A stretch of DNA of 25,040 bases from Candidatus Omnitrophota bacterium (GCA_043803685.1 JAZDJU010000011.1:1-25040), one strand, 5' to 3'. Positions 6,636 to 25,040 are shown, counted from the first letter of the stretch. The notes: a model not told the origin generated them from the letters alone. Translations and numbers: made by a program.

Positions 6636-6687
6636 TATCTGGGTGGTGGTGATGGAGCTTGGCTAAGGAATTCCTGAGCTCTCCCCC

Positions 6688-6715
6688 ATGCCGCTTTCCG
6701 ACGATAAGGCGACAT
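6688..6715. repeat. dif-like 28-bp site S1
   Basis: ATGCCGCTTTC-CGACGA-TAAGGCGACAT; arms match 8/11 as an inverted repeat. Confidence 0.65.
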
Positions 6716-6819
6716 TAAATCGCCTCCAAACGGAGAGAGCAGCACGGATGAGATTTGCCTGCCGCCACGTATCGTCTAACCGACTTAAGGCGTTAAATTG
6801 CTAATGGAGAGATTTCTTT

Positions 6820-7776
6820 TTATCTCGAGAGACTTTGAGGGATTTCAACCAGCATGGACTTATCGATCTCTGCACTATCAACCCTCTGGTTATACATCTC
6901 CAACAACCGTTTAAATTCATCAGCCACTTTATCCTTCGAGAATTTCGACAACTCGTCTATATTCTGAGCGATAAAAGACTCTATAGCTTCTACTGCAACC
7001 CTACCCGGAGCCGCCACCTCGGCATTTTGCTTCGCACCTTCCAACAGCCTATCAGGAACGAGGAGATAGACACGCTGCCCATCCAAGATATTCCTCGTAC
7101 ATTTTTCATATACTGCGGGCATTGGTGCTACAGTTACATGGAAAGCAGTATTTCCTATTAAAAAATCTCCCGGCCTGTTCAACTGCTGATCCGCAGTACT
7201 ATACGATTCGTTACTTACCGACACATCAGGAAACCTCAGCTGCAGCTTTGCTCCAATAAGATATTGCGCCACGGGGCCTTCTTTTCCCGTTTCACGTGCA
7301 ACTGCAAGCAATTCAAGAATCGATTGTCGAGTTGTCTTTGTGAAATCATAGTTCATTTTTAATCGCTGCTGATTATGGAATTCACGCACTTTTTCAACTA
7401 GAACTTTTTGAAATCGCTCCAAAGCTCTAACTTTTTCTGCCGGAGCGAGAGCTTCTAATTTTTCAAGTTTTATAGCAGAGAGCATCTTTTCTATATCACC
7501 GCGCAAGCCTCTGTTTGTCCGGCCTCCTTCGCTTACAAAAGGTCTTGTTTCTCCAAACTTCTGGAGGATTTTTCTGACGGCGTCTCCCCCCGCGCCGCGT
7601 ACCTGTGACCCACCTTTTGCAGTATGCGAATCTATGTTTAAATCAAATCTTTCTTTAAGCTGTTCGATCACGCATAAAGCTCCACTAAGAGTACCCTTGG
7701 CGGGGAATCCACCATAGAGTTTTAGAGCAGAATGCCATTGTTCAAAAGGGCTTAATGCCTTATTTGCCATTATCAT
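6820..7776 (-). CDS. DUF4928-like protein, putative restriction endonuclease partner of the methyltransferase
   Basis: 318 aa. EGGRTNRG, QYLIGAKL, TADQQ..RPGDFLIGNTAFHVTVAP recognised as DUF4928-like. Overlaps the end of the MTase gene. Confidence 0.6.
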   Translation of the reverse strand: MIMANKALSPFEQWHSALKLYGGFPAKGTLSGALCVIEQLKERFDLNIDSHTAKGGSQVRGAGGDAVRKILQKFGETRPFVSEGGRTNRGLRGDIEKMLSAIKLEKLEALAPAEKVRALERFQKVLVEKVREFHNQQRLKMNYDFTKTTRQSILELLAVARETGKEGPVAQYLIGAKLQLRFPDVSVSNESYSTADQQLNRPGDFLIGNTAFHVTVAPMPAVYEKCTRNILDGQRVYLLVPDRLLEGAKQNAEVAAPGRVAVEAIESFIAQNIDELSKFSKDKVADEFKRLLEMYNQRVDSAEIDKSMLVEIPQSLSR

Positions 7777-9370
7777 TACCCCATGACTTTAAAGGGGTGC
7801 TTCTAATCAGGTTGCTCACTAGTGGATTCAGATAGTATTTTGCGATCCATTCCACAACCGAGACACAAACAGCATCACCGAAGCCGAATAAAGCCTTGTT
7901 CGCAGAAACGTTAATTTTATAATTATCTGCCCCCATAAGCCGTGCTGCTTCTCGCGGAGTAATTAATCTCGCAAAATACTTTCCTTTTCCGGCTTTAAAT
8001 AATATTTGCCTTGCGCTGCCCCCTTTCGGGGTCCGCAAGCATCCCGCAATTCCATCGACTCTTAATTCAGCAGTAGATACTCCATGCCGCGTTCTTCTGA
8101 ATATAGTTCCATAACGCCACCCTTTCCCACGAATCATCTCATCAGCGATTTCACGGTGTTTCTTACTCATTTGGCTTAACAAGTATCGCGCTCGTTCTTT
8201 GTTCCACCAACTTTTATCGGCACGTGGAATGTCCTCCAGGACATGTTTTAAATCAAAATGGTCGTTAGGAGGAATTGGCAAAGGCTGCAAATGCCATCTG
8301 ATCTCAGGATGCCCCCCCACAAATTCCATAAGGCTCTCGGGTCTCAATTTGTTCACCGCAATGCTTGTCGAGCTCACCGTCTTACCGCACATCATTTCTT
8401 CTTGAATCCCAACGACAAACAACCTAGGTCTGCTTTGGGGGACAAAATTAATCGCATCCATAATAAAAGCGTCAACAGAATAGCCCAGTCGGTTCAAAGC
8501 CAATAAGGCTTGCTTAAAGTCCCCGCCATTACTCGACGTAAGGAAAGCAGGGACATTTTCGAGCATTATAATCGGCGGTCGTCGGCACCCCATCTCGTCA
8601 AGCACCCTAACAAAGCCCCAAAATGCCGACGATTGTTTGCCCTGTAGTCCTTCTCTCGCACCAGCAAGCGATAGGTCAGTGCAAGGGAAAGAAGCCGTGG
8701 CTAAAGTAACGGTTGGTATTTCGTTAACGGAAATCTTATGGATGTCTCCTAGAGCGAAGTGTTTCTCGACGCTCTCAAAGTTATCTTTGTACATTTCATA
8801 TTTCTGGACATCAATATCATTCGCAAAGGCGCAAGACCAACCGGCGTTTTCAAGGCCCATCCTCATTAGACCGATCCCGGCAAAGAATTCTGCTACGGTT
8901 CTTTGCGGTAAGCTCGAATACGAACGGGTATTAATGCGGTTTTCTAAAGCTAGTCTTATTACATTGAGACAGCAAATCATGTTCTGATTAATTTCACTTT
9001 CCCAAAAACGCAATACAGTCCAACCCTCAGATATTAATAAAGAGGTAAAGTTAAAATCTCTCTCCATATTGCGACGAATTTTTGAAAGCCAGTATTCTCT
9101 TGTTTTGGTGGTTTTGAACTGCTCCTCTAAAGATAAAAGGTCTCTTTCTTGCCATTGTCCACCATGCCAGAAATCCCCGTCAATAAAGATAGCAAGCTTC
9201 TCACTCGGGATTACGATATCAGGCTTTCCGGGAAGATTTGAACAGTTGGTCTTAAAGCGAAGGCCGGTGGACTTGAGAGACTTTTGAAATAGGCTTTCTG
9301 GAAGAGTACCGGATGAATGAACTCGCCGCATTCTTTCTGAAACAATGTTGAGAGCGTCATTTATTAACAT
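7760..9370 (-). CDS. dcm: Fusion of Vsr (very-short-patch repair endonuclease) and DNA (cytosine-5) methyltransferase
   Basis: N-terminal ~140 aa: LPGKPDIV, IFIDGDFWHG, YWLSKIRRNMERD, GWTVLRFWESEI (Vsr). C-terminal: FFAGIG (motif I), SFPC (IV), ENV (VI), QSRPR (VIII), RLITPREAARLMG (IX), FGDAV (X). One continuous frame. Confidence 0.92.
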   Translation of the reverse strand: MLINDALNIVSERMRRVHSSGTLPESLFQKSLKSTGLRFKTNCSNLPGKPDIVIPSEKLAIFIDGDFWHGGQWQERDLLSLEEQFKTTKTREYWLSKIRRNMERDFNFTSLLISEGWTVLRFWESEINQNMICCLNVIRLALENRINTRSYSSLPQRTVAEFFAGIGLMRMGLENAGWSCAFANDIDVQKYEMYKDNFESVEKHFALGDIHKISVNEIPTVTLATASFPCTDLSLAGAREGLQGKQSSAFWGFVRVLDEMGCRRPPIIMLENVPAFLTSSNGGDFKQALLALNRLGYSVDAFIMDAINFVPQSRPRLFVVGIQEEMMCGKTVSSTSIAVNKLRPESLMEFVGGHPEIRWHLQPLPIPPNDHFDLKHVLEDIPRADKSWWNKERARYLLSQMSKKHREIADEMIRGKGWRYGTIFRRTRHGVSTAELRVDGIAGCLRTPKGGSARQILFKAGKGKYFARLITPREAARLMGADNYKINVSANKALFGFGDAVCVSVVEWIAKYYLNPLVSNLIRSTPLKSWGNDNGK

Positions 9371-9379
9371 ATGGTGTTT

Positions 9380-9408
9380 ATTGTATACGACTTTTTATTT
9401 TGTATAAA
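9380..9408 (-). promoter_or_regulatory. Putative near-leaderless promoter of vsr-dcm
   Basis: Minus strand TTTATA-17 bp-TACAAT, ending 9 nt before the ATG; no Shine-Dalgarno visible. Confidence 0.45.
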
Positions 9409-9412
9409 GCAA

Positions 9413-9440
9413 TCTTAAAGAGACCTTCTTAAAGAGACCT
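9413..9440. repeat. 14-bp tandem duplication
   Basis: TCTTAAAGAGACCT twice, exact. Confidence 0.9.
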
Positions 9441-9569
9441 TCGAGGGTCTTCACAAAATGCGCAGGTAGAAACGGCCGTTGAGAAGTGACAGCTTAAAGC
9501 GCACTCACCCAGTGTCAGCGTTTTGTCTTGGGCATATTTTGGCTTTGCTTAGAATTTGCCGATCTTCGG

Positions 9570-9597
9570 ATGTCGCCATTCGACTAAAAGCCGACGT
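9570..9597. repeat. dif-like 28-bp site S2
   Basis: ATGTCGCCATT-CGACTA-AAAGCCGACGT; arms 8/11; core differs by 1 nt from S1 and S3. Confidence 0.6.
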
Positions 9598-9660
9598 TAG
9601 AATTGCTCATTCAACCTGTCCTGATACCGTTCTAGTACCGTTCTACACGTGCGTTTTATT

Positions 9661-10680
9661 CTATTGAGTATCGCGTATGATGTCTAATTGGTTAAAATCA
9701 AAAGAAGCTAAAAAAGCTCCCCCGCCTTGCTTTTTCTTCGGAGATCTCACTTGAGCAATTCGCGGCTTTCCTTTTGCCTTTATTTGATTATGCCAATTTA
9801 AAAGGACAAGATTCTTACCTTTGTGTCTGGGACTATCGAATAGAATCCCATTAAAACCCATTGACCTCGCGCAATCGGCAATAAACCGTGGGATAAAATA
9901 TTCTGGCCTCCAAATTGCTCGCGACCCAGGAACTAATGACCGCAGCTTAACATTGATAAACCAGGGCAACCCTTCAAGCTCATCTTGTCGACTTGCCAGC
10001 ATAGTCAGATTAAGAATGTTATCGATTTCTGTTATAACAAAGCGTTGAATCCATGCAATATTTTCGCCTTTTTCTAGCGTCTCAATTAATGCAGCATCTT
10101 TGGATTCTGCCAAATAAAAGACTCTTTGACCATAATGGTTAAATCGTCCTTCTGCTTCTGGCTGCTTTGGCGGCAACATATCTTTCGTTAGAAATTTTTT
10201 TGCACCTTCAGGCTTCCTAGCGCGCCACCAAATTTCATTCGAAATGCCCACTTTGGGAAACTGCCGTAAAGCGTTATAGATTTTCCTCCCCATTTTGTGC
10301 GCACATCCTAAATAAGGGTATTTCTCTAAAAATTCTCCAAAATCTTTGATCGCTGGGATGTATTTCTTGCGAAGTCGTTCCCACTCATTTTCCTCCTCTA
10401 CCTCAGCCTGCGTTTTTACTCCGATCGTATCACCGCGAGAAAATTGCGCTCTGCAATTTCCACAGCATAATTCCTCTACTAAACGATCCCGCAACTTGGC
10501 AGGGACATTAAATTCATCGAAAACCTCTTCTAAATCCTCCGCTGATCCATTGATCCAAAATGTTTCCTTATCTTCGCTATCGAATGGTTGGCAATAAGTA
10601 CAACTAATACACCAGGGCTGGATTTTTTTCCTTAATCTTTCGACTCGGCTTTCCTCGGCACTTGTCAAATCCATGGGCAT
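9661..10680 (-). CDS. RES-domain protein (putative NAD+-consuming effector) with a Cys-rich N-terminus
   Basis: WRAR...PP...EGRFN..GQRVFYLA...AL.E...Y..PRFIAD..R.MGFNGILFDS...NLVL gives the R-E-S signature. N-terminal CxxCxxC and CCxxC. Confidence 0.85.
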   Translation of the reverse strand: MPMDLTSAEESRVERLRKKIQPWCISCTYCQPFDSEDKETFWINGSAEDLEEVFDEFNVPAKLRDRLVEELCCGNCRAQFSRGDTIGVKTQAEVEEENEWERLRKKYIPAIKDFGEFLEKYPYLGCAHKMGRKIYNALRQFPKVGISNEIWWRARKPEGAKKFLTKDMLPPKQPEAEGRFNHYGQRVFYLAESKDAALIETLEKGENIAWIQRFVITEIDNILNLTMLASRQDELEGLPWFINVKLRSLVPGSRAIWRPEYFIPRFIADCARSMGFNGILFDSPRHKGKNLVLLNWHNQIKAKGKPRIAQVRSPKKKQGGGAFLASFDFNQLDIIRDTQ

Positions 10681-10724
10681 TATATTTTTTCTCGAATCGA
10701 GCTTATATAGGGTGCGTGTGGTTT

Positions 10725-12359
10725 TTAAAGTTTCAAAATCTTAAAGATCTCTTCAAGCGGCACCGCAAAATCAGGGTAGGTCTTTCGAAGATTATCCCAC
10801 GTGCCACAAGCTTGAATCAGCTCCGCAACATGTCGAGAGTTTTCGCTCTGTTTCGTCGTCTTGAGAACTCCTTCTAGATTAGGGTTCATAACTTTCCAAG
10901 AGTTACTACTAGGATCAATTTTGAGTAATGCATTCTTTGCATCAGCATCTAAAAAAGCCGCCTGAAGAATTTGAAAATTATTAGCATAGGGAGCTAAATG
11001 AACTATATTGCCAAACCCACCAAGACGCAAAATCTCAAGCCCATAATAGGCGGGCACTATCCCTTTCAATGCCAAAGCTGCTTGAACTGCAGCATAGTCA
11101 TCATCACCTTCAAGAAATAAAACTCGTTGCGAAAAAATCAATCGGTCAAGATTAGGTTCTATGAATTTCAATGTAATATCAAAAGAGGGCGCTTTTGTTT
11201 TTGCAGGCCATTGGATGGGAGTAGTAGCGCCTGATTCTTTTTTTAACAAAATTGCGCTTTCAGGAACGGCAGGATCAAAAAATTCCGCACTATGGGTTAT
11301 AACAATTACCTGATTCCCCATCTTTGCAAACTTCTGTAAAGTTGAAGCGAATAAAGCTCTGAGATGTGATCCTAAAAATATTTCCGGCTCTTCAATCAGG
11401 ATAATGTTTCCTTTCGCACTATCACCCAAATTATTCAAAGCACGAAAGAGCGCCACAATCCCAAGAGCGGAATATCCTCGCCCAAGTCTTTCAAAAGGCA
11501 GCAATGGCACTTCAGCATCATCTTTTCCAAGGAAATCGAGTTTTTTTAATAGATCCATGCCCCCCGGCAGACCGATTTCTAGACCTAAGGATTTCGGTGG
11601 AAGTTGTAATTGTGCAGTCATGAAGTCAGCCATTGTGCTTAATATAGCGTCAACGCGATCAGTCTTTAGTAATCCCCCCAACTCCGCCAACACTTCTTTA
11701 ATAGCTTCTTCTCGCGTGCAATCCTTGCCATGCCAGTTAATACGATTAGCATCTCTCAATAAGTCATCATGCAAAATCTTAGAAAGAAAGGACATCAAAC
11801 TTCCGCGTTGCATCGACAAGTGCCAATGGTAGGAAGCATTATCCAAATAATAAATAGGTATGCGTCCATTAATTTCTCGAACCATCAAAGGACGCGTCTT
11901 TTGTCGTCCTTCTTTTTCCTCAGAAGTTAATTCCCGGCCTTTTGCTAATTTAGTAGCCATATCAGTCAGTATAGGTTGGCCAGTCGGAGTTAACGCAGAA
12001 TGCTCACAACGAACACTGCCCTTTTCTTCGCCGATCTTGTATTCCTTTGCTTCGAAGCGCAGCAAGCCAACGTCAGAAAATTTGTTGAATGTATCGCCAT
12101 GTTTTAAAGGCGGATCGAGTTCAGCTTCAATTTTAATGGGATTTTCGGTATTGCCCTTATGGAAATCCCAGCTTTCCACAAGATCTCCACCGATATTTTT
12201 TTGCAAGGTAATCCATCGAAGAGCTTCGAGCAAATTGCTTTTACCCGCCGCATTTAATCCTGCAACGACAAAGTAGCCATCCGCATGGCTTAAATCAATG
12301 GAAAGAAGTTGGGGGCCAAAGGAACGTAGATTTTGGATGCGAAGCGTTTTAATTTTCAT
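10725..12359 (-). CDS. OLD-family ATP-dependent nuclease (ABC ATPase + TOPRIM)
   Basis: Walker A GLNAAGKSN, signature-like LGRG, Walker B IEEPE, H-loop ITHS, TOPRIM FLEGDDD and DAD. Confidence 0.88.
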   Translation of the reverse strand: MKIKTLRIQNLRSFGPQLLSIDLSHADGYFVVAGLNAAGKSNLLEALRWITLQKNIGGDLVESWDFHKGNTENPIKIEAELDPPLKHGDTFNKFSDVGLLRFEAKEYKIGEEKGSVRCEHSALTPTGQPILTDMATKLAKGRELTSEEKEGRQKTRPLMVREINGRIPIYYLDNASYHWHLSMQRGSLMSFLSKILHDDLLRDANRINWHGKDCTREEAIKEVLAELGGLLKTDRVDAILSTMADFMTAQLQLPPKSLGLEIGLPGGMDLLKKLDFLGKDDAEVPLLPFERLGRGYSALGIVALFRALNNLGDSAKGNIILIEEPEIFLGSHLRALFASTLQKFAKMGNQVIVITHSAEFFDPAVPESAILLKKESGATTPIQWPAKTKAPSFDITLKFIEPNLDRLIFSQRVLFLEGDDDYAAVQAALALKGIVPAYYGLEILRLGGFGNIVHLAPYANNFQILQAAFLDADAKNALLKIDPSSNSWKVMNPNLEGVLKTTKQSENSRHVAELIQACGTWDNLRKTYPDFAVPLEEIFKILKL

Positions 12360-12521
12360 TAAGCCGAGGGTTCTCTATTTAAAAAATTATATGCTTACCG
12401 AACGCCTTCCGCGTGGAGAGGTTAGCTCCCCTGCTTCAATTGCTAAATACTCTGCCTCTTAGTGGGGATTTTCAAGAAAAATTATGGGGTTTTCTGGGGT
12501 TTTCCCGGAGGAACGAGCAGA

Positions 12522-12549
12522 ATCTCACTTTTCGACGAAAATGCGAGAT
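12522..12549. repeat. dif-like 28-bp site S3
   Basis: ATCTCACTTTT-CGACGA-AAATGCGAGAT; arms 9/11; core identical to S1; the right arm is the exact reverse complement of the S4 left arm. Confidence 0.75.
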
Positions 12550-12573
12550 TAAGCGTGGGCGTACGCGTGCTCA

Positions 12574-14070
12574 TTAAGCACGAGAAAACTTCTTCAAGCC
12601 GAGCACATCCATGAGGCCTGGGTGCAGCTTGAATTTTTCGGCAGTTTCGTCAAACCTCGCTCTTCCCTCTTTGTATTTGAAGACATATTCGGAACCGCCA
12701 AAACCGCCACCACCAGCTCGATAAAAGCCGATCACAGAAAAAGAAAATAATTCTTTCAGAATTTCCATAGGATTTTTCCCGGGGAAGAAATCCTTTTTGG
12801 CATCAAAAATTCGTATAAATTCGGCCTTATCAAATTGCATCACTCCAATACCCTTAAAAATTTCCAAATAGTCTTCATATTTGGGCAAATGTTTGTGAAT
12901 TTCATCATCCAGTTCACGAAGGAAATAGTCGCTATAAGAAGTCTTGGCTTTTATCAAATCAGCATTATCGAATTTCAGATTAGAATCAGGCTCGCTCTTT
13001 AATCTGTTTTTGTATTCAACCAGAACTTGATTGCAAAACTTAATAATATCGCGAGGCCTAAGATAGGTGCGATCCAGAATGTGCTGATATTTGCTCTGAT
13101 GGCCAGTCATTTCTTTCGTCTCATCAAACACTTCATCCCAATTAACATTTTCGCCTTCGCCTAATAGCAACGCAAATCGTTTCTCCATCAACCCCTTAAG
13201 TGTTTTCGATGTTGTCTGCGTATCCCATTCAATAGTCGAGAGGTGATTCTCAGTGATTTTATTCTTGTCTTCAAAATGCAAGTTGTCGTAGATATCATTT
13301 CTAAGAAAAATAACGACGAGCAATTTTTTTCCAATTTCCTTAGCTTTTAAGTTTATATCGCGCGCGGCTAATAATAATCCAATAAGCCGATTCATATAAT
13401 CGGGGCTACCCGGGTCAAAACCCAAATCCAATTGGTCGAAACAAACATAATATTTATGAGCTGGGTTAAGGCAAGATAGCACGGCAGTGGTAAGATTCTG
13501 GTTAACCTCCTGAATAATTGTGGGTAGTTCCTCCATCGGAACTTGTTCAGGAGAGATGCCTGCCTTCAATAGCTTAAAATCAAAATCGATATGTGGTTTC
13601 AAACGAAGGACTTTAGTGGGACTAAAAATCTGGGTAACGTCAGGATCACGCGTACCATAGGTGTCGATAACAAATTGTTCGATCTTTGCTTGTTGCTTTA
13701 ATGATTCTTCGTCGTATGGAAGTGATTGATCTTGGTTTAAAACGATTTTTGAAAGAGTGAGCAAAACAAAATATTTCCAGCTATGCGTAAATTTATCCTG
13801 ATCGGGGATGCCGAGCTTTACCTGCCTATCGTGATATTCCCAAGGATAATCCGTAAATGTGTGGCCAAAGCAGAAGAAATCATATGTTCTATTAAGAAGT
13901 AACTTTTTGAATATTGATGTTTTGCCACTCCCCTTCCTTCCGACAATTAGGAAGTTTTTTAATTCAAGCAACGCCTTAAAGGCCTCGTGATCTTCAAAAC
14001 AACGAATGAGAATATCATCGCTATCCGCATCGATACCTCCGAAACATTCGATTTCCAATAGTTTCTTCAT
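12574..14070 (-). CDS. P-loop ATPase, Sll1717/FunZ-like family
   Basis: 498 aa. FGGIDADSD N-terminus, GRKGSGKT, FDQLD, FLRNDIY, DKNK, RTYLRPRDII. Confidence 0.75.
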   Translation of the reverse strand: MKKLLEIECFGGIDADSDDILIRCFEDHEAFKALLELKNFLIVGRKGSGKTSIFKKLLLNRTYDFFCFGHTFTDYPWEYHDRQVKLGIPDQDKFTHSWKYFVLLTLSKIVLNQDQSLPYDEESLKQQAKIEQFVIDTYGTRDPDVTQIFSPTKVLRLKPHIDFDFKLLKAGISPEQVPMEELPTIIQEVNQNLTTAVLSCLNPAHKYYVCFDQLDLGFDPGSPDYMNRLIGLLLAARDINLKAKEIGKKLLVVIFLRNDIYDNLHFEDKNKITENHLSTIEWDTQTTSKTLKGLMEKRFALLLGEGENVNWDEVFDETKEMTGHQSKYQHILDRTYLRPRDIIKFCNQVLVEYKNRLKSEPDSNLKFDNADLIKAKTSYSDYFLRELDDEIHKHLPKYEDYLEIFKGIGVMQFDKAEFIRIFDAKKDFFPGKNPMEILKELFSFSVIGFYRAGGGGFGGSEYVFKYKEGRARFDETAEKFKLHPGLMDVLGLKKFSRA

Positions 14071-14271
14071 AACCTGCTCCGCAATTTGTTTCCGAGCAAT
14101 CCCGTTGACATTACAATCTGACGTTCCAAAAGCTAATCACACGTGCTTACCTAATTCACAATGGCATAGTATAGCGTTGATCAGGAATATCGGAAATTTA
14201 AATCCATTTTAGCGATCTGACAAAATTTGGCTAAAAAATGCTTGCTGTAATTCGTCCGATTGGCAGACTCA

Positions 14272-14299
14272 ATCTCGCATTTTGCATATTATGCGAGAT
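14272..14299. repeat. dif-like 28-bp site S4
   Basis: ATCTCGCATTT-TGCATA-TTATGCGAGAT; arms 9/11; 18/28 identical by hand count to E. coli dif GGTGCGCATAA-TGTATA-TTATGTTAAAT. Confidence 0.75.
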
Positions 14300-14451
14300 T
14301 CGGGAACCCTCACACATGTTCGATCCCAAACCGGCTCCCTGAACTGATTAGATCATTACCGTGTTCCCCCGCATGTGAGACCAGCGCAACTAGCTCATGA
14401 CCGCAGGAGAGGTGGAAATCCTTAAGACTCGGGTGAAGGAGCTGCCGTTGA

Positions 14452-15429
14452 CTATGTCAACAAGACAAGTTTAAAAACACCGCTGGTTGTTTGATCGGTG
14501 CCGCTACCGGCGATATCCTGCACCATACCCACATCGAAGCGCAGATGATCGTTCACGGGAATGATCGCGCCGAAGACCATACTGAAAAGCTTTGCGCCTT
14601 TTCCGGGGCTTTGAAATTCCTGGGTATAGAGCGCCTCGATCTGCGGCTGGAGCCAATCGAAAACATGATATCCTGCACCATAGCCAACGGTCATAGTTCC
14701 GGCGGAGTTGTCGCTCCTTTTTTTATGTGCGAAAGGAACTTCATAGCCGAGGTTCCCGCTCATCGTCCAGCGTTTGATATCCTTCGTCACCGCTAGCGTG
14801 TTCCCCATGCTGACATATCCTTGCGACGGCCCGAGGTGATCGAGGTTGCTACGCCGGCCAACCGGGATCACAATGTAAGGAACATACGCCATGCGGAGTG
14901 TCTTATCGCAAGACTGGTAAAAGCGCCAGCGGCCGTTCACGGTCATATCCTGCCAGCCGTGCCCCTTATGCGGGCCGTCCGTCGTGTCCTCCAAGGGGTC
15001 TCCTGTCGCAGGATCGATCTGGCCGTCGACTTCATTATAATTATTCTCTTTGTCCGCAAGGATCGAAAAACCTTCCGTAATGCCCATGTCAAACCCTTCA
15101 AAAACACCGAAGTTCACGGTGGACTGAAAAGAACTCTCCCTGAAAAGTTTCCGGCTGTCCCGGCTCCCGCTCGTCTGCCACTGCTTCCCCGACCCGGTGA
15201 TTGAATAAGAGCTACTCCACTCGATCTTCATCGGATCAAGCGGCGTTGCGTCCACCAAAACGAGCTTCGTTGCTTCCGGTTCAAAAACTTCCGTCTCCTC
15301 AGTGGAGGCCTCCACCATTGGAAGTGTTTTGGTGTGCGGCTCGTCCTTAGCGAAAACTTCACCCAGTCCTATCCCAAATACCGGCGTGATAATCGAAAGA
15401 AAGATGGCCATGTTCTTGAGTTTTCTCAT
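14452..15429 (-). CDS. Putative outer-membrane beta-barrel transporter (MetA-pathway/SphA-like)
   Basis: Signal peptide, amphipathic beta-strands, GWQD...KWRF-like segment and PVG motif; last gene of the nik cluster. Confidence 0.6.
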   Translation of the reverse strand: MRKLKNMAIFLSIITPVFGIGLGEVFAKDEPHTKTLPMVEASTEETEVFEPEATKLVLVDATPLDPMKIEWSSSYSITGSGKQWQTSGSRDSRKLFRESSFQSTVNFGVFEGFDMGITEGFSILADKENNYNEVDGQIDPATGDPLEDTTDGPHKGHGWQDMTVNGRWRFYQSCDKTLRMAYVPYIVIPVGRRSNLDHLGPSQGYVSMGNTLAVTKDIKRWTMSGNLGYEVPFAHKKRSDNSAGTMTVGYGAGYHVFDWLQPQIEALYTQEFQSPGKGAKLFSMVFGAIIPVNDHLRFDVGMVQDIAGSGTDQTTSGVFKLVLLT

Positions 15430-15523
15430 AATCTCCCCCTGTTTTGGCGCAGAAAGCGCCGTTATTTAATTTCTGGCTGGGGAGTTAGACCTGGCTGGAA
15501 ATATCGACGATCAAATCGTGGCG

Positions 15524-15715
15524 TTACTTATTCAAAATCAACTTTTCTGTTTTCGTGATCAATAGCCGGTATTCTTGCCCGTGATGACGGATCAAGACCT
15601 CTCTGGCTCTTCCGAAAAGATCTGAGGAATTAAAACAACGCTTGTCGGAATGTGCGAAACCGCCCGCTCTCTCGGGAGCTATCGAACGGCTTGAAAGGGT
15701 GTTTTCTGCTTCCAT
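15524..15715 (-). CDS. hemP: HemP-family small protein
   Basis: SSDLFGRAREVLIRHHGQEYRLLITKTEKLILNK matches the HemP/HmuP signature. Confidence 0.85.
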   Translation of the reverse strand: MEAENTLSSRSIAPERAGGFAHSDKRCFNSSDLFGRAREVLIRHHGQEYRLLITKTEKLILNK

Positions 15716-15728
15716 AAATGGACTCGCC

Positions 15729-16124
15729 TTATTCTGTCGAGCAAGCGATCAAGTCTCCACCCTTGATCCCTTTCAGCCCGATCAGCTTTTTTGAAAGACC
15801 GTTCAGCTCTTTCGCGCGTCCCTTCACGAGAATGGTTTCAAGGCAATGGTGATGGTCGAGATGCACATGCTGACCCGAAAGGATCAAGTGATGATGATCA
15901 TGCTGAATGGTCATGAGGTTGTTGAGGAGATCTCGCCGGTGATGGTCATAGATCAGCACAACACAACCGGCCACCAGTTTGTTGTCTTTCCATTTATCCT
16001 GGAGTAAATTTTTCCGCACTAGGAACCGTATCGCCTGTGAACGGTTGGGAAGTTTATGTTTGGACACGAGGCGGTCTAATTCCTTCAAAAGGCCATCTTC
16101 TACAGAGACCCCGAATCGTTTCAT
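15729..16124 (-). CDS. nikR: Nickel-responsive regulator NikR
   Basis: RHH N-terminus RFGVS...NRSQAIR; YDHH, QHDH and HVHLDHHHCLE nickel site. Confidence 0.95.
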   Translation of the reverse strand: MKRFGVSVEDGLLKELDRLVSKHKLPNRSQAIRFLVRKNLLQDKWKDNKLVAGCVVLIYDHHRRDLLNNLMTIQHDHHHLILSGQHVHLDHHHCLETILVKGRAKELNGLSKKLIGLKGIKGGDLIACSTE

Positions 16125-16137
16125 GACATGCCTCCGG

Positions 16138-17052
16138 CTATCTCGCCGTCTTGAGTTTCATGCAGGTCAAACTTTTGGCCAGAAGCCAACCCAGAGCGAA
16201 GACCAACAATACGCCGGCCAAACCGGCCAAACCCGTGGATAGCATCCCATCTGGAAGCGCCGGAACCGCGTATCCCGATAGAGGGCTCACAAATGTGGGT
16301 GCGGCTTCATGCAGAAACCGGTATTTTTCAGCAACCCATTCGAGGCCGTCAGGAAATCCGCTTGCGAAGGAACTCAAGAGAGTCCCGATGATCCCGGCTG
16401 CTAAAAGCGGCGCGCCCACATTCCACTTAGGAGAGGTGCTAAGTGATTCCGCGGAAAGAAATCGATAAACCGCCACGGTGATCAATCCCTCACCCATTCC
16501 GATAAGAGCATGGACGCTTAACATCGCGCCAGCAACCCTTGCGAAAGGAACAGTCCCTGAGATCCCCAATTCAATGCTGCACGCCAACGCCGCCAAGATC
16601 ACGGAAAGCCATCCTGCCACGCCAAGCGAGGATAAGCGAAAGACCGAATTCTTTTCGGAAGCCCCTGCAAATTGTTTAAAAAGGAATCCTCCCACTCCCG
16701 CACCGATCAAGGCCATGTTAAAAATGTTGGCACCAAGAGCCGACACACCTCCATCGGAAAATACAAGACATTGAACAAGCAGGACAAGCGCGGTCGCCAA
16801 AACGCCGAAAGGAACGCCTAGAAGAGCAGAAGCAAGCACGCCTCCCAAAAGATGACCGGAGGTGCCGTTCTGAATGGGGAAATTCATCATCTGGGCCGCG
16901 AAAATAAAGGCCGCGACCGCTCCAAAGCGAGACGCTGAGGGTTTTTCTTTGGATCTTATTACCATGATCGCGGCGCTGGCAATGCCGAGCGCGCTGACCG
17001 CGGCCGTTACGGGGCATATCTGCCCATGAAGCATGTGAGCCGGGATGTGCAT
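16138..17052 (-). CDS. nikM: ECF-type Ni/Co transporter substrate component NikM/CbiM fused to a PDGLE (NikN) domain
   Basis: MHIP N-terminus, FAAQMMNFPI..GTSGHLLGG, DGG..ALGAN, HALIG..EG, C-terminal PDGLE. Confidence 0.92.
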   Translation of the reverse strand: MHIPAHMLHGQICPVTAAVSALGIASAAIMVIRSKEKPSASRFGAVAAFIFAAQMMNFPIQNGTSGHLLGGVLASALLGVPFGVLATALVLLVQCLVFSDGGVSALGANIFNMALIGAGVGGFLFKQFAGASEKNSVFRLSSLGVAGWLSVILAALACSIELGISGTVPFARVAGAMLSVHALIGMGEGLITVAVYRFLSAESLSTSPKWNVGAPLLAAGIIGTLLSSFASGFPDGLEWVAEKYRFLHEAAPTFVSPLSGYAVPALPDGMLSTGLAGLAGVLLVFALGWLLAKSLTCMKLKTAR

Positions 17053-17088
17053 AAAAAACCTCCTGAGTTTATTTTTTAAGGGAAACAG

Positions 17089-17136
17089 GTGTTACGTTTT
17101 TCAGAATGATGCTACTTAAAATCATTAGCTTGTCAA
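17089..17136 (-). promoter_or_regulatory. nikM promoter with an overlapping candidate NikR operator
   Basis: Minus strand TTGACA (17131-17136)-16 bp-TAGCAT (17109-17114). Operator GTGTTAC-N13-ATGCTAC (17089-17115) covers the -10. Confidence 0.6.
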
Positions 17137-17179
17137 TGCTAAAGTTGAAAGCGTTTTTAATTTCCAAGATCGTTAACGC

Positions 17180-17200
17180 AAATGAAAATGATTTCTATTT
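17180..17200. promoter_or_regulatory. Candidate Zur/Fur box
   Basis: AAATGAAAATGATTTCTATTT has the same geometry as the AAATCGTAATnATTACGATTT Zur box. It overlaps TTTACA (-35; CATAAT -10 at 17220) upstream of the zur-znu operon. Confidence 0.65.
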
Positions 17201-17268
17201 ACAACGGACGCATTCTATGCATAATGGGCGCGTTGTCAACCCTGATTTAAATCCAAGGAGGCGCACTT

Positions 17269-17688
17269 ATGAATCCCTATCTTGTCAGGCTTAAAGAAAA
17301 CGGCCTCAAGGTCACTTCGCAGCGGGAAGCGGTGTTGGCCCTTTTCGCCAAAGACAACTCGAGGAAAACTCCGTATGCGGTCCACAAAAAACTAAAGAAA
17401 CGCCTTCCTCAGTTAGGCCTTCCAACTGTCTACCGCGTTCTCGAAGAGCTTAAGGAGATCGGGCTTTTAGTCCAGATCCCCTCGGAAGACCGGCAGCTTC
17501 ATTACAGCCTATGCAATCTTCCGGCCGACAAGCACCATCATCATTTCGTTTGCCGGAAGTGCAAAAAGGTCGAAGAGGTGGAACATTGCAACTTCAAAGG
17601 TATCTCGAATTTTATCCTTCGAAAACTTGGCGCGATTGTCGAATCCCACTCCCTTCAACTGGAAGGCCTTTGCGCCTCCTGCAAATAA
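17269..17688 (+). CDS. zur: Fur-family regulator, likely Zur
   Basis: GLKVTSQR, PTVYRVL, HHHHFVCRKC, C-terminal CxxC; heads the znu operon; AGGAGG RBS. Confidence 0.8.
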   Translation: MNPYLVRLKENGLKVTSQREAVLALFAKDNSRKTPYAVHKKLKKRLPQLGLPTVYRVLEELKEIGLLVQIPSEDRQLHYSLCNLPADKHHHHFVCRKCKKVEEVEHCNFKGISNFILRKLGAIVESHSLQLEGLCASCK

Positions 17689-17701
17689 CAAGGAGCTTGT
17701 C

Positions 17702-18601
17702 ATGAAAATAATGCGGCTGTATCTTTTAATAGCGGCACTTGTCGCACTACCGGCTCATTACGGATGGTGTGCTGGCATGAGTGATACCGACGGACAAAAC
17801 CAGAAGCGGATACTCGCGTCATTTTATCCGATGTGTATCATGGCGCTTAATGTCGCAAAGGATGTCCCGGGCGTTACCGTGGCGAATCTGACCCCGCCTC
17901 TTACTGGTTGCCTGCACGACTACGCGTTAACGACCCAAGATATGAAGAAGTTTGTTGATGCAGATATCTTTGTCGCAAATGGCGCGGGGATGGAATCTTT
18001 CCTGGATAAGGTGACGGCACAATACCCCGGATTAAAAATCGCTAAATTATCAGAAGGTATCCCGTTAATAAAAGGCGAAGGGGATGAAGGCGACAATCCC
18101 CACGTATGGGTAAGCATTTCTAACGCGATCACGCAAGTCAAAAATCTTTGCAAATCCTTGCAGACGTTTGACCCTGCGCACGCCGAGATATACCAAAAGA
18201 ATACAGATGACTATGTTTCTCAGTTGGAATCCTTGCGTCAAAAGATGCATGCCGCCGTGGATCCCTACAAAGGAAAGAAAATCGTGACATTCCACGAAGC
18301 ATTCCCCTATTTCGCGGAAGAGTTCGGATTAGAGATCGCTGCCGTTGTGGAAAGAGAACCAGGCAGTGAACCTAGCGCGCAGGAGCTTGCGAAAACAATA
18401 GATTTAGTCCGAGGATCAGGCATCAAAGCTTTATTCGCTGAGCCGCAATACCCTGCGCTCGCCGCAGAAGCCATTGCCAGCGAGACAGGAGCAAAGGTCT
18501 ATATTCTTGACCCCGCGGTAAGCGGCCCTGAGCAGCCTAATGCCTATGTCCGAATCATGGAAACGAACTTGGCAACGCTTGAAGAGGCGCTAAAGCATTA
18601 A
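17702..18601 (+). CDS. znuA: Zn/Mn ABC transporter substrate-binding protein
   Basis: Start moved to ATG 17702 (AGGAG RBS, signal peptide). LHDY, NPHVW, FHEAFPYF, EPS, LDP motifs. Confidence 0.88.
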   Translation: MKIMRLYLLIAALVALPAHYGWCAGMSDTDGQNQKRILASFYPMCIMALNVAKDVPGVTVANLTPPLTGCLHDYALTTQDMKKFVDADIFVANGAGMESFLDKVTAQYPGLKIAKLSEGIPLIKGEGDEGDNPHVWVSISNAITQVKNLCKSLQTFDPAHAEIYQKNTDDYVSQLESLRQKMHAAVDPYKGKKIVTFHEAFPYFAEEFGLEIAAVVEREPGSEPSAQELAKTIDLVRGSGIKALFAEPQYPALAAEAIASETGAKVYILDPAVSGPEQPNAYVRIMETNLATLEEALKH

Positions 18602-18602
18602 T

Positions 18603-19376
18603 ATGGAACGCTCGTGCGGACACTGTTGTCTAAAAATTGAAGGTCTGAATGTAGCGATTGACGGTCATCCGATACTTGAGAATGTCAATCTACATACGGA
18701 TTGCAAAGAGCTCCTATCGATTATCGGGCCAAACGGAGCGGGTAAAACCACTCTATTGAGGGTGCTGTTGGGTGATATTCCCTATCAAGGAAGAATCAAT
18801 TTTCAAGAGAAAGGATTGAAAAAAAAGAATCCACGAATAGGGTACGTCCCACAAAAGCTGAATTTTGACTATAACGCTCCCGTGAGTGTTCAAGATTTAA
18901 TAGCTGCATCCTTAACGTATGCGCCTGTATGGTGCGGGATAGCCGGTGGTATTAGAAAAAGGATAGAAGCTGTTCTTGAAAGATTCTCTGTAGCACATCT
19001 TTTGGATCGTACGATCGGGTCATTGTCAGGAGGCGAATTGCAACGGGTGCTTCTGGCTATGGCGATGATCCCCATTCCTGACCTACTTTTGCTGGATGAA
19101 CCCGTCTCAGCAATTGATGTGAAGGGGCTTTCTTTATTTTATGAGACCGTGATGCGGCTTAAAAAAGAGCATGATATTTCTATTGTTATGGTGACTCATG
19201 ATCTGGCGGGAATTGCCCCCTATGCCGATAGAATGATCCTGCTTAACCGCTCAGTCCTTGCAGAAGGAACGCCGCGCCAGATCCTTTCTGACAAAAAACT
19301 CGTTGAGACGTTTCAACTGGAGCTGCTCAACGTATCCCGCATCTCACTCTCTACTGAGGGGAAAAGCGATGAATGA
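18603..19376 (+). CDS. znuC: Zn/Mn ABC transporter ATP-binding protein
   Basis: GPNGAGKT, GYVPQ, LSGGELQR, LLLDEP, VTHD. Confidence 0.9.
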   Translation: MERSCGHCCLKIEGLNVAIDGHPILENVNLHTDCKELLSIIGPNGAGKTTLLRVLLGDIPYQGRINFQEKGLKKKNPRIGYVPQKLNFDYNAPVSVQDLIAASLTYAPVWCGIAGGIRKRIEAVLERFSVAHLLDRTIGSLSGGELQRVLLAMAMIPIPDLLLLDEPVSAIDVKGLSLFYETVMRLKKEHDISIVMVTHDLAGIAPYADRMILLNRSVLAEGTPRQILSDKKLVETFQLELLNVSRISLSTEGKSDE

Positions 19377-20214
19377 ATTTTACAGCCACATGACGCGGCT
19401 TCATTTCAGTTGGATGCAGTACGATTTCATGAAGAACGCTCTCTTGGCGGTTCTCTTTGTGACCCCGCTCTTTGCGCTCTTAGGCACGATGGTCGTCAAT
19501 AACCGTATGGCTTTTTTCTCTGATGTGCTTGGGCATTCCGCGTTAACCGGCATAGCGCTGGGGGTGATGCTTGGCGTGGGCGATCCTTTTTGGGCGCTGT
19601 TGATCTTTACGATCATACTTGCCGTTGCGGTGAACTACTTTAAAGGAGTGACCCAAGCCTCATCGGATACAACGCTGGGTGTATTTTTTGCTATGGTGGT
19701 TGCGACAGGGGTTGTCATTTTAAGCAGGAATGGCGGTTTTAGTAAATATACGACGTATCTTATAGGCGATATTTTGGCTATCTCCGGCGGGGAGATTAAA
19801 TTGTTGATCGCGGCATTCTTGCTGGTCACAGGATACTGGTATTTATTCGGCAACAGCCTTTTATTGTTGAGCGTTAACCCGACTCTTGCGCGCAGCCGGG
19901 GCGTAAAGGTATTTTGGGTGGAGACGAGTTTTGTGATCGTGTTAGCGATCATCGTCGCAATCTCCATACGCTTGGTCGGGGTTTTAATTATTAATTCCCT
20001 CTTAGTCCTTCCAGCGGCAACTTCTCGTCTGTTGGCTCGCAACACATCAAGGTATACCTTTTACAGCGTTGGGATCAGCATTGTCTGCGGAGTAAGCGGC
20101 CTTATCGCTTCATACTATTGGAATACCGCGTCCGGAGCGACCATTGTGCTGTTGTGCGCTTTTATGTATGTACTCTCAACTTTTATTACTCGCCTTTTAC
20201 CAAAGAAGTCATAA
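19369..20214 (+). CDS. znuB: Zn/Mn ABC transporter permease (ABC-3)
   Basis: Start moved to ATG 19369. MAFFSDVLGHSALTG, YLIGDIL, VGVLIINSLLVLPAA, SGATIV. Confidence 0.9.
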   Translation: MNEFYSHMTRLHFSWMQYDFMKNALLAVLFVTPLFALLGTMVVNNRMAFFSDVLGHSALTGIALGVMLGVGDPFWALLIFTIILAVAVNYFKGVTQASSDTTLGVFFAMVVATGVVILSRNGGFSKYTTYLIGDILAISGGEIKLLIAAFLLVTGYWYLFGNSLLLLSVNPTLARSRGVKVFWVETSFVIVLAIIVAISIRLVGVLIINSLLVLPAATSRLLARNTSRYTFYSVGISIVCGVSGLIASYYWNTASGATIVLLCAFMYVLSTFITRLLPKKS

Positions 20215-20222
20215 CGTAAAGA

Positions 20223-21377
20223 ATGAACATGGATAAGAACCGCATTGAAAAAGATAGCCCCCTCAAAAAAATCATGAGCAAACTTAAAAAATTTCTAAAC
20301 TGGATCTTTCATAATTTATTTCTGAAGCTTTGGCTCGTCTTCGGAGGGATCATCGGTATTTCAACCGCCTCCACATGCCCCTGCTGCGGTCAAGTCGCCT
20401 CATCCTGCCCCGCGGGCCTCTCGATCATTGCCATTTTGGCAGGGATACTGGCTGGATTGGGTGTTTTTTATAAAAAGCTCTTTAAAAGAGGAACTGCCGA
20501 AATGCCTCGCGCTGCAAAGCAATCGAGAAAATGGCCCTTCGGCTGGGCTCTGTTCCTTTTGACAGTGATCGCAATCATAGAGTTCGGAAACTATTTTCCG
20601 ATAAACGCTGCTCCCAAAAACCAGTGGCAGCCCAAACCCCGAATGCCGGGCATGTGCCCGCTTAGAACCAATGCGGCTCCTATCCCCCCTGCACCCACCC
20701 TGCAGAATCTTGAAAAAATTCAACCGATTGCGACGATCCCAAAGAAGAATCTTGAAACGCAATCAGCAAGAAATACGCAAAAGCCTGACGCCAAGAAGGT
20801 AGCCTCCGGAGCTATGCTGGCAGAGAAAAAAAACATTCCAGTTCAAACATCTCCGGAAATAATCCCGAAAGCAAAACCGGCTGAGAGTCCTGCGAAGCTC
20901 GGACGGATGAAGGCCGTCATCAATGAAGATGGCTCCGTGGAAATGCAGAAAGAAGAGCCCGACATGATCCGTTATGAAACAGCAGGATTTTTGGAATTGA
21001 ACGATGATATGTATAACCGGCTCGATTTTTATGAGGGGAAAAAAGTCGAGATCACAGGATACGTCTATCGTCGTAGCGATTTCAAGCCAAACCAGTTCGT
21101 TGTAGCTCGATCTTACATGTGGTGCTGCAGCTTTGACGCCTCTCCCGTCGGCCCGCTGTGTGAATGGGATCGCGCTCCGGAACTCACCAACGACACTTGG
21201 GTCAAAGTGGAAGGCCTTATCACCCGGGAACACTTCATAGATGCTTACTATGAAGAAACCGGTGACATCCCTATCATCAAAGTTGAAAAGATTGAACGGG
21301 TTTCAAAGCCCGAAAATCCGTATGTGTACGCCAGAAATCCGGCGGCTCTTTTCGGCTCAAATCGCCGCTCTAAGTAA
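20223..21377 (+). CDS. Membrane protein with a C-terminal DUF1980/TIGR03943 (YcgQ-like) domain and an N-terminal CPCCG motif
   Basis: YEGKKVEITGYVY...FVVAR..MWCC..DA..VG...WVKVEG...P.NPYVY; three hydrophobic segments and a Pro/Lys-rich linker. Confidence 0.75.
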   Translation: MNMDKNRIEKDSPLKKIMSKLKKFLNWIFHNLFLKLWLVFGGIIGISTASTCPCCGQVASSCPAGLSIIAILAGILAGLGVFYKKLFKRGTAEMPRAAKQSRKWPFGWALFLLTVIAIIEFGNYFPINAAPKNQWQPKPRMPGMCPLRTNAAPIPPAPTLQNLEKIQPIATIPKKNLETQSARNTQKPDAKKVASGAMLAEKKNIPVQTSPEIIPKAKPAESPAKLGRMKAVINEDGSVEMQKEEPDMIRYETAGFLELNDDMYNRLDFYEGKKVEITGYVYRRSDFKPNQFVVARSYMWCCSFDASPVGPLCEWDRAPELTNDTWVKVEGLITREHFIDAYYEETGDIPIIKVEKIERVSKPENPYVYARNPAALFGSNRRSK

Positions 21378-21457
21378 AATTGACAAGGAATTAAAAAAAC
21401 GCTACCGAAAAATAACACCGCCTTTGTGTATGTGTAAATTGTTTGCACCGAGATTGA

Positions 21458-21485
21458 ATGTCATTTTCTGGGCTAAAAGCGACAT
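21458..21485. repeat. dif-like 28-bp site S5
   Basis: ATGTCATTTTC-TGGGCT-AAAAGCGACAT; arms 8/11; overlaps the stop codon of the SIR2-like gene. Confidence 0.55.
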
Positions 21486-22522: not shown

Positions 22523-22539
22523 ATTCTCCTCAACGGGTG

Positions 22540-23100
22540 TTAGCTAAACTTCAGCAAGGAACCCAACTTATATTTCAGGATAAGCGAACGAAGAACGGGG
22601 TCTTTGGCGTATTGGCGGAGGATATCCTTCGCGACAGCTCGGATCGCCTCTTCGATGCTGGGAGGCAGGTTTTGAGGCGAATGAGCCCCTGAGACACCTG
22701 TAATGCTCCTGGTATAAATATTCTCGCCTGAGCCATCGAACACTCTTAAAACTAGCGTCAACTGGATCACCTCAGCCTGATCAGCGATATTAAGCGCTTT
22801 AATTCGTATCACAAGTAATCCGCCCGACTTCTCAGGAGCTGCAAAAACATACGGCGATTCCCCTTCTTCCGTAATCACTCCTGCGATCCTGAGCCCGGCA
22901 TTTTCCTCGAGGTTCTCTGCAATACATTTCATCACGGTCGCAAGATGGCTGGGTGGCGCTTGGGCAACGGATTTAATATGTTTGTCGCGAACATCACCCG
23001 AAAAGACCGGAACAGGCAGCCGAGTTGTTCCGCAGCCGTACAGCACAGGACCCACAACGATTAAAAATACCGCTTTAACGGACCGGCGCATGGCAAACAT
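22540..23100 (-). CDS. Putative lipoprotein
   Basis: Start at 23100 or 23091 gives a basic N-terminus, a hydrophobic core and the lipobox LYGC. Confidence 0.6.
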   Translation of the reverse strand: MFAMRRSVKAVFLIVVGPVLYGCGTTRLPVPVFSGDVRDKHIKSVAQAPPSHLATVMKCIAENLEENAGLRIAGVITEEGESPYVFAAPEKSGGLLVIRIKALNIADQAEVIQLTLVLRVFDGSGENIYTRSITGVSGAHSPQNLPPSIEEAIRAVAKDILRQYAKDPVLRSLILKYKLGSLLKFS

Positions 23101-24941: not shown

Positions 24942-24965
24942 ATTCTTGATCTCTCCTTAGTTGAT

Positions 24966-25040
24966 TTAGATCCATGCCTTGCACCGTTCCGGAACCGACC
25001 TTGCGGTCCAGTACGCAACGGGAATGGAAAGGATCAGGCT
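24966..25040 (-). CDS. 3' end of an upstream gene (partial)
   Basis: Open frame SLILSIPVAYWTARSVPERCKAWI* ending just before the AAGGAG RBS of the HlyD gene. Confidence 0.4.
   Translation of the reverse strand, partial: SLILSIPVAYWTARSVPERCKAWI

Follow-up and report, generated by a model that had tools for sequence, protein, structure and literature searches.

Palindromic 28-bp sites in an Omnitrophota defence island as probable targets of a very small tyrosine recombinase

Among the gene-capture platforms described so far, integrons and pdif modules come closest to the array of sites reported here. The attC sites of integrons are folded hairpins of 57–141 nt. In the pdif modules of Acinetobacter (PMC13141974), reactions prefer identical or nearly identical spacers, and neighbouring sites are inversely oriented, with C and D modules in alternation. 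The cargo of integrons is reportedly rich in defence and toxin–antitoxin genes (bioRxiv 10.1101/2024.07.02.601686). Here we analyse a stretch of 25,040 nt from Candidatus Omnitrophota bacterium (GCA_043803685.1 JAZDJU010000011.1:1-25040; hereafter, the window), in which five 28-bp palindromes, S1–S5, each made of two 11-bp arms around a 6-bp spacer (11-6-11), punctuate a series of defence and metal-uptake genes. The window is the complete contig C11 of G000, a bin of 2.89 Mb in 133 contigs (assembly 91% complete, 6.6% estimated contamination), and has a G+C content of 46.0% compared with 52.1% for the whole genome. We consider it probable that these 28-mers are the sites of a dedicated tyrosine recombinase and bound exchangeable modules, in an exchange system that is probably run by a very small recombinase and not by the enzymes with which the cell resolves its chromosome. 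Other genomes, contigs and loci are cited by working handles (for example, G012, C23 and L064).

The site family and its polarity

An earlier note on this DNA had placed five dif-like 28-mers at the junctions between unrelated gene blocks, one at each junction and none within a block, and had read them as the marks of a recombinase-built cassette array. Positions and letters of all five are confirmed (Table 1). The two arms of a site are complementary at 8, 8, 9, 9 and 8 of 11 positions in S1 to S5, respectively, and the arm consensus is ATGTCGCnTTT. When a matrix made from the ten arms was run over the whole 2.89-Mb genome, S1–S5 took ranks 1–5 (23.6–29.0 bits), followed by matches at C34:10646 (22.1 bits) and C82:10399 (20.7 bits), all others remaining below 18.3 bits. 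As this test is circular, each site was left out in turn, which gave 1, 9, 0, 1 and 0 equal-or-better positions for S1–S5 among 2,882,867. A separate matrix, made from 41 sites of relatives, recovered only S1–S5 in the window at 14 bits or more (scores of 23–30 bits) and, elsewhere in G000, C34:10646 plus a few weak matches. On the strength of these scans the five palindromes form one genuine site family, and because the 41-site matrix finds only these five at that threshold, no site lies inside any block, as had been claimed.

The motif recurs mainly in one Omnitrophota family. With up to three mismatches, the symmetric pattern is found in 41 of 61 relatives, among them 17 of the 19 genomes of the same genus (1–13 sites each), and the reversed pattern gives 0 or 1 match per genome at the same tolerance. 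In a scan of 401 genomes of the phylum with up to two mismatches, the pattern appeared in 22 of 65 same-family genomes and, by subtraction from the tallies, in 12 of 335 genomes outside the family, mostly once, with control matches in 5 genomes. The sites cluster on particular contigs, at about six per genome, and all lie in variable islands.

Position and polarity were read from 20 fetched regions in which open reading frames (ORFs) were called and 41 sites of at least 20 bits were oriented by the nearest gene end pointing at the site. The distance after that gene end is at most 100 nt in 29 of the 41 sites and at most 50 nt in 22, and the distance from the site to the next gene start ranges from 0 to more than 1,000 nt. 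In the window, S1 lies 105 nt past the DUF4928 stop (and 52 nt away from an insertion-sequence end), S2 64 nt past the RES gene stop and 200 nt ahead of the Vsr–Dcm start, S3 25 nt past the stop of the Sll1717 ATPase gene, and S4 153 nt past that of the outer-membrane (Phenol_MetA_deg) gene; S5 adjoins the 3′ end of the SIR2-like gene, where two genes converge, and a conserved segment that many relatives share has its left limit there. Sequence information is limited to the 28 bp (that is, two 11-bp arms and the 6-bp spacer) plus one or two flanking bases. In the direction of the preceding gene, 39 of the 41 sites have a pyrimidine (C or T) at spacer position 5, compared with 22 of 41 if the sites are flipped (discordant cases 18 versus 1, one-sided p = 8e-5). 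Several spacers recur across genomes and contexts (TCCCTC, TACCTA, AGCCCA, TATGCA, TCGTCG/TAGTCG, CCAATC, ACCACC and TGTGTG), and S1–S3 have identical or almost identical spacers on one strand.

The arms do not vary together: complementary cells number 323, and reshuffling of the right arms between sites gives 325.8 on average (P = 0.72); at arm position 7, where C and T often replace each other, no change is matched by one in the opposite arm. Because this covariation is lacking, the arms appear to behave as two half-sites for a protein dimer and not as the strands of a hairpin.

Homology breaks and a linked small recombinase

Homology between genomes stops at the sites, most sharply in a pair of metagenome contigs (L064 and L074, below). 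The stretch between S5 and the end of the contig recurs at 77–91% identity in many relatives, and in three further copies in the G000 bin. In an alignment of nine copies, the DNA on the left is unrelated in 9/9 and a two-armed site stands at the same spot in 4/9; more S5-type members occur in G004, G008, G011 and G018, with a different gene preceding the site in G008 and G011, and for a contig of 1,467 nt from a permafrost run, the match to the window starts no earlier than 21457. The metagenome contigs L064 and L074, found by the site pattern alone, are 99.9% identical over 4,132 nt, and three of their four differences fall within the left arm of a single site (inner positions 8, 9 and 11), leaving one difference in the 4,119 nt from the first spacer base onward; before the site they are unrelated, with a 903-nt cassette compared with a 1,563-nt Mrr cassette, each preceded by another site. 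The joint in this pair maps to the interval from position 7 of the left arm to the first base of the spacer. A mosaic site in G012:C23 has its joint at the same border, between left arm and spacer: its left arm and gene are as in G036:C52 and the S5 site of the window, and its spacer TATGCA, right arm and next 115 nt are as in G008:C4:11398. In a synteny test conditioned on boundaries with a homologous flank elsewhere, which we adopted after a comparison of BLAST match ends had given no enrichment, synteny is maintained through 0 of 17 sites and through 60 of the 129 gene boundaries elsewhere (p = 9e-5, a value that overstates the effect because the loci were chosen for their sites and several S5-type sites represent one orthologous place).

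A gene for a small tyrosine recombinase follows the last array site in L064 and L074 (PF00589 match, E = 3.7e-38). Its likely start, MKRQR..., gives a protein of 204 amino acids, and relatives have 189–204, mostly 189, 194 or 204. The protein matches only positions 105–284 of the 295-position XerC model, that is, the catalytic domain without the N-terminal core-binding domain, and is 35–37% identical to the XerC of the genomes themselves; R46, K69, H140, R143, H166 and Y175 are invariant in 30 family members. A structural model (mean predicted local distance difference test score, pLDDT, 83.6) has as its best solved matches XerH on the palindromic difH, XerA and the C-terminal domain of XerD, the solved structures being covered over about half their length, in the catalytic half only (TMt 0.40–0.52). 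The family has many members, mostly in Omnitrophota, which bear only general names where they are named.

Site and recombinase lead to each other from both directions. A site stands about 210 nt before the small recombinase gene in L064, L074, L060, G018:C130 and G008:C258, and in 9 of 13 recombinase loci a site of at least 20 bits is present on the same contig within about 12 kb. Among 29 metagenome loci chosen by the site pattern alone, seven have a tyrosine recombinase of 202–207 amino acids within about 1 kb, three of these being 86% identical to the query (204 amino acids) and four only 28–36% (202–207 amino acids). Conversely, 68 genome loci were chosen by the recombinase alone. Of the 13 with at least 61% identity, 7 have sites (all seven at 63% or more), and of the 55 with at most 54%, none has; a reversed-sequence control at the recombinase-chosen loci found no site in 680 kb. 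Recombinases that are 52–54% identical have 11-6-11 palindromes of their own, with arms ACGACGC..., ACGCCGT... or ACTGCGC..., and at 48% identity the arms are ACTTCGn...; in these variants the outer arm bases are altered, and three of the palindromes start 6–10 nt past the recombinase stop. These cases are few, and theirs is the pattern that would be expected of an enzyme and a site changing together. As the small recombinase is linked to the sites, it offers a reasonable candidate for the single recombinase that the earlier note had suggested. Such a recombinase stands beside sites in relatives and metagenomes, but none of this family was found in the G000 assembly.

Two further observations concern this family. 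In L058, L067 and L070, which belong to more distant lineages, extra single half-sites (ATGTCGC/GCGACAT) lie within about 60 nt of a full palindrome near a gene for a recombinase of 200 amino acids; these may be accessory binding sites. L110, a record titled Candidatus Paceibacterota, holds a fragment that shares 99% identity with the G008 small recombinase, and is either a mis-binned contig or a recent transfer.

Gene blocks of the window

The blocks between the sites (Table 1) carry the genes that had been named for them before, namely DISARM-like/insertion sequence, DUF4928 plus Vsr–Dcm, RES plus OLD, Sll1717, the Ni/Zn cluster and SIR2, the last of which is only weakly SIR2-like.

Table 1. 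Sites, modules and other features of the window, in window coordinates
Feature	Position	Strand	Description
Left of S1			DrmA/DrmE-like stretch, split NERD–helicase gene, insertion sequence
Insertion sequence	5331..6636	-	ORF of 388 amino acids, weak IS481-like match
S1	6688..6715	-	along minus-strand genes ATGTCGCCTTA TCGTCG GAAAGCGGCAT
Module S1–S2	6716..9569	-	type II restriction–modification pair
DUF4928	6820-7776	-	restriction enzyme
Vsr–Dcm	7760-9370	-	fusion
S2	9570..9597	-	spacer TAGTCG in gene orientation
Module S2–S3	9598..12521	-	RES-domain protein 9661-10680, OLD-family ATPase/TOPRIM nuclease 10725-12359
Promoter-like stretch just after S3 (about 90 nt)	12430..12521	-	TTGAAA, 17 nt, GAGTAT
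S3	12522..12549	-	spacer TCGTCG, same as S1
Module S3–S4	12550..14271	-	Sll1717-family P-loop ATPase 12574-14070
S4	14272..14299	-	spacer TATGCA
Block S4–S5	14300..21457	both	outer-membrane protein (Phenol_MetA_deg), NikR, CbiM, Zur, ZnuABC, DUF1980
S5	21458..21485	-	spacer AGCCCA in gene orientation
Conserved segment right of S5	21473..25040	-	weakly SIR2-like gene, gene of 207 amino acids, nucleotidyl transferase, HlyD-like gene

To the left of the array, the gene for a NERD plus UvrD-type helicase (747-2458) is probably frameshifted, because it consists of two overlapping ORFs (1544-2458 and 747-1688). The insertion sequence that adjoins S1 is outside the site system: the possibility that it targets the site was rejected, as an 88% identical copy in G012:C5 has no site nearby. 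The promoter-like stretch just after S3 is common to the DNA that follows the G008:C4:11398 and G012:C23 sites, where it stands ahead of other genes. Between S4 and the outer-membrane gene, a stretch of 85 nt (14365-14449) has short DNA matches (72–91% identity) on several contigs of many relatives, and in G006:C199 it lies again (855-939) about 30 nt past a site (796-823); Rfam has no family in the window, this stretch included. At the right end, the segment with the HlyD, nucleotidyl transferase and SIR2-like genes (21496-25040) is present in four copies in the G000 bin at 87–88% identity (the others at C34:1891-5435, C96:1-2632 and C3:1-2450). Where this conserved segment stops, at S5, the DNA that varies from genome to genome starts. 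The bin may be a mixture of related strains, given this fourfold segment, two XerD genes and the contamination estimate of 6.6%.

In the islands of relatives and of G000, a LexA-like S24 protein (195 amino acids) and a UmuC-like polymerase (about 440 amino acids) recur beside island integrases (G036:C26, G008:C15, G005:C9, G036:C10 and G000:C82; loci L034, L042, L032, L036 and L012), and in G005:C9 a site lies 11 nt past the gene for the UmuC-like polymerase. Integron-like elements that insert into rulB have reportedly been treated in a paper (PMC4542609).

The proposed exchange system, its rivals and its known counterparts

From these sequence patterns, we suggest that the palindromes are core-type recombination sites in which two inverted 11-bp arms would bind a dedicated tyrosine recombinase, and not the host XerC/XerD pair, with the 6-bp spacer as the region of crossover. 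Because every site marks the 3′ end of a module and all share one polarity, a cassette would consist of the DNA from one site to the next. Exchange between two directly repeated sites would excise the cassette as a circle, reaction of the circle with a resident site would insert it, and recombination between arrays would swap whole stretches, sites with equal spacers (for example, S1 and S3) being the preferred partners. The putative enzyme is the Xer-like recombinase of 190–204 amino acids with a catalytic domain only. As the G000 assembly lacks it, the window would represent an orphan array in a defence island of low G+C content, much like a cluster of integron cassettes that has no integrase. 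The idea of a recombinase-built cassette array thus appears right in kind, given that homology stops at the sites, but its attribution to Xer and dif does not hold.

Several observations weigh against this proposal. The best match to the small recombinase in G000 is XerC (35% identity, in an assembly that is 91% complete), G036 has 10 sites and no small-family recombinase, and 4 of the 13 recombinase loci mentioned above have no site on the stretch examined. Neighbouring sites often differ in spacer, though S1 and S3 match, and such differences ought to impede canonical exchange. The site immediately ahead of the small recombinase gene (L064:2885, L074:4303, L047:633 and L092:3475) has the spacer GATTGC or GATTAC and breaks the polarity rule of the arrays, and it may for that reason be a special docking site or be inverted. 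BLAST match ends, compared with all gene boundaries, are not enriched at sites (8/43 versus 77/294, p = 0.35), and the locus counts are not independent, for loci were chosen by site and several of the S5-type sites are orthologous.

The modules of the window themselves add further points of this kind. Breaks of synteny at sites, for which the earlier note had proposed to search relatives, are seen at S5, in L064/L074 and in G012:C23, but no event is seen in modules S1–S4. These modules have practically no DNA match in 60 relatives (a single match of 57 nt), so that their mobility is argued by analogy, and a metagenome scan with the OLD protein returned no relative. Five public runs contained 5–9% of sampled words of the window, and four of them were assembled into thin, short contigs with patchy cover. 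Among those listed, the contigs near-identical to the window (0–4 other letters) all fall within 9615–12412, inside module S2–S3, and the read-derived joints all fall inside the insertion sequence. Circular junctions did not appear in these thin contigs, which show no circle, empty site or excision joint at any site and none joining across a module. Finally, the metal-uptake block between S4 and S5 (nine genes, 7.2 kb, strands mixed) is doubtful as a cassette. Its nikR–cbiM part (15729-17137) is 80% identical to a copy in G004:C13 and G002:C3 that sits in a region syntenic with G000 contig C40, where G000 has two other genes, and no site or scar that could mark an empty site of the block was found around nikR–cbiM in G004 and G002; the block may instead be displaced chromosomal DNA.

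A reading that extends the Xer/dif analogy of the earlier note takes the 28-mers for additional dif-like sites on which the host XerC/XerD would act, the modules moving in the manner of Acinetobacter pdif/dif modules; it seems unlikely to us. It draws on the 11-6-11 geometry, on the presence of both XerC (C79) and XerD (C1, with a near-copy on C109), which pass curated cut-offs, on the occurrence of sites in genomes without a detected small recombinase, and on the Xer-like nature of the small recombinase itself; a few arms, for example ATCTCGCATAA in S4, also resemble the XerC arms tabulated for Acinetobacter pdif sites (PMC13141974). However, the chromosomal dif of G000, GAGTCCTATAA-TGTATC-TTATGTAAAGT (C12:22281-22308), which is a canonical XerC/XerD site and the sole perfect match to the generic dif pattern, is a different sequence: in our own comparison, the module arm consensus is like either host dif arm at 4 of 11 positions, and no module arm is like the XerD arm, the conserved part of pdif sites. 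With 4 of 11 positions shared, the term dif-like holds for geometry only. Across the order, 45 of 61 relatives match the host-dif pattern, with one copy per genome, as do 29 of the 32 genomes of good quality (two genomes have two, and the reversed control falls at one place in each of 2/61 genomes); dif and XerCD span the whole order, whereas the motif is mainly confined to one family. Beyond geometry, the analogy with pdif modules also breaks down in that the sites are co-oriented with the preceding gene and do not alternate. Two other candidates for the chromosomal dif were discarded. A one-per-genome variant, ATCTCGCTTAT TTGATG AAATGCGCGAT, was rejected as a chance match within a conserved gene, because in G000 it lies in apparent coding sequence (C37:128931) with no change in G–C skew, and a second conserved variant, AACTCGCGTTT..., was dropped likewise.

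A somewhat less probable alternative is that the 28-mers are scars (of attL/attR type) left by the serial integration of small elements that lack integrases, through the large island integrases of 360–480 amino acids with their HTH_17 excisionase-like partner. Such integrases, with HTH_17 and LexA-like/UmuC genes, do lie a few kilobases from arrays in G036:C26, G008:C15, G000:C34, G000:C82 and L074. Yet the C82 integrase directly adjoins tRNA-Met, where integrases of this kind usually insert, and the sites are short symmetric palindromes with differing spacers and not extended identical direct repeats. The C34-type integrase, profiled in 61 genomes, does not follow the sites in its occurrence (it has no match in G005, G006 and G016, although sites are present there), and the samples picked by site and by recombinase both indicate the family of 200 amino acids.

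We regard as similarly improbable a reading of the 28-mers as operators for a dimeric island protein, either a LexA-like S24 protein or the small recombinase acting as repressor or resolvase at its own gene, with the sites at borders only because modules bring regulated promoters. Arms that evolve as independent half-sites would suit an operator, as would the site that several loci have some 210 nt ahead of the gene for the small recombinase, the promoter-like segment shared after S3 and two other sites, and the frequency of LexA-like genes in the islands. Against an operator, S5 and G005:C9:5835 lie between convergent genes, where there is nothing to regulate, the sites hug the preceding stop at widely varying distances from the next start, and the joints fall inside the site at the arm/spacer border; the window and L064/L074, moreover, have no LexA-like gene. 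Structural hairpins (terminators, RNA-stabilising stem-loops, or repeats like repetitive extragenic palindromes or miniature inverted-repeat transposable elements) are very improbable and largely refuted: although the sites follow gene ends or lie between convergent genes and S3 (z = -3.95) and S4 (z = -2.35) fold well as RNA, S1 and S2 fold no better than shuffles, S1 not even as the palindrome, arm changes are not compensated, there is no T-tail, none of the 19 terminator-like matches in 6000-22600 is at a site, no site matches Rfam, and there are only some six copies per genome, all in variable islands.

If a dedicated recombinase does act on these sites, the array may, as a tentative and wider proposal that we hold with less than even confidence, represent a gene-capture platform of a third kind, distinct from integrons and from pdif modules, in Omnitrophota and perhaps also in further lineages that have relatives of the recombinase of 200 amino acids. 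Duplex 28-bp sites would be the substrate of a mini tyrosine recombinase that lacks the core-binding domain, the 6-bp spacers would provide a small set of addresses for exchange, the arms would co-evolve with the recombinase subfamily, and chromosomal islands would be stocked with restriction, OLD, RES, SIR2, Mrr and toxin–antitoxin cassettes. Literature searches, judged by titles and opening lines of abstracts, returned no description of such sites or of such a recombinase in Omnitrophota. Were the proposal true, a large uncultured phylum would have a simple and compact means of assembling and swapping defence genes, with a site and an enzyme unlike those of integrons, and the building of defence islands without an integron would be accounted for. 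Searching for the site would also become a rule by which module borders and new defence cassettes could be located in metagenomes, and a recombinase of 200 residues with a 28-bp target would be a possible tool. It would, in addition, raise the question of how a tyrosine recombinase without a core-binding domain recognises an 11-bp arm.

Compared with the known systems, the array shares with pdif modules the 28-bp 11-6-11 sites that bound accessory modules of one to a few genes, including toxin–antitoxin genes, and the position of joints inside the sites, which in pdif modules are joints between related replicons (PMC13141974); its recurring spacer classes may likewise be set beside the spacer preference of pdif reactions. 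It differs in that the arms are near-symmetric, with neither a resemblance to host dif nor distinct XerC and XerD arms, in that the sites are co-oriented with genes and show no alternation, in its location in Omnitrophota chromosomal islands, and in the separate mini recombinase linked to it. With integrons and clusters of attC sites lacking integrases (CALINs), it has in common the co-oriented cassettes that each end in a site, the existence of orphan arrays, the recombinase at the array end (in L064/L074) and a cargo rich in defence and toxin–antitoxin genes. We nevertheless rejected an integron reading, as of the defining features only the co-oriented cassettes agree: with the integron-integrase model TIGR02249 (cut-off 265), the best G000 recombinase scores 151.6 and the small recombinase 90.9, so that there is no IntI-type integrase, the 28-bp sites are duplex-type palindromes and not folded attC sites with compensatory change, and the recombinase has no N-terminal domain.

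The enzyme itself is closest in predicted structure to XerH and XerA, and in this modelled respect the system resembles XerH/difH, XerA/dif and Cre/loxP, in which one enzyme acts on a near-palindromic core site near its own gene. The 28-mers have the features of a simple core site (that is, inverted arms, a spacer of 6–8 bp and joints at the arm/spacer border), and the small protein has the catalytic residues R-K-H-R-H/W-Y and the fold of a tyrosine recombinase, but not the core-binding domain of Xer, Cre and IntI. Single-recombinase Xer systems serve dimer resolution with one site per replicon, whereas here many sites per island bound cargo, and the enzyme, of 190–204 amino acids, corresponds to positions 105–284 of the XerC model only. 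FimB/FimE-type invertases share the size of about 200 amino acids, and the small recombinase has weak matches to models of tyrosine-type DNA invertases; however, these reach 40 bits compared with 156 bits for Xer models, and no invertible segment was seen here. In summary, the array would work like pdif modules and integrons, but it lacks defining features of both.

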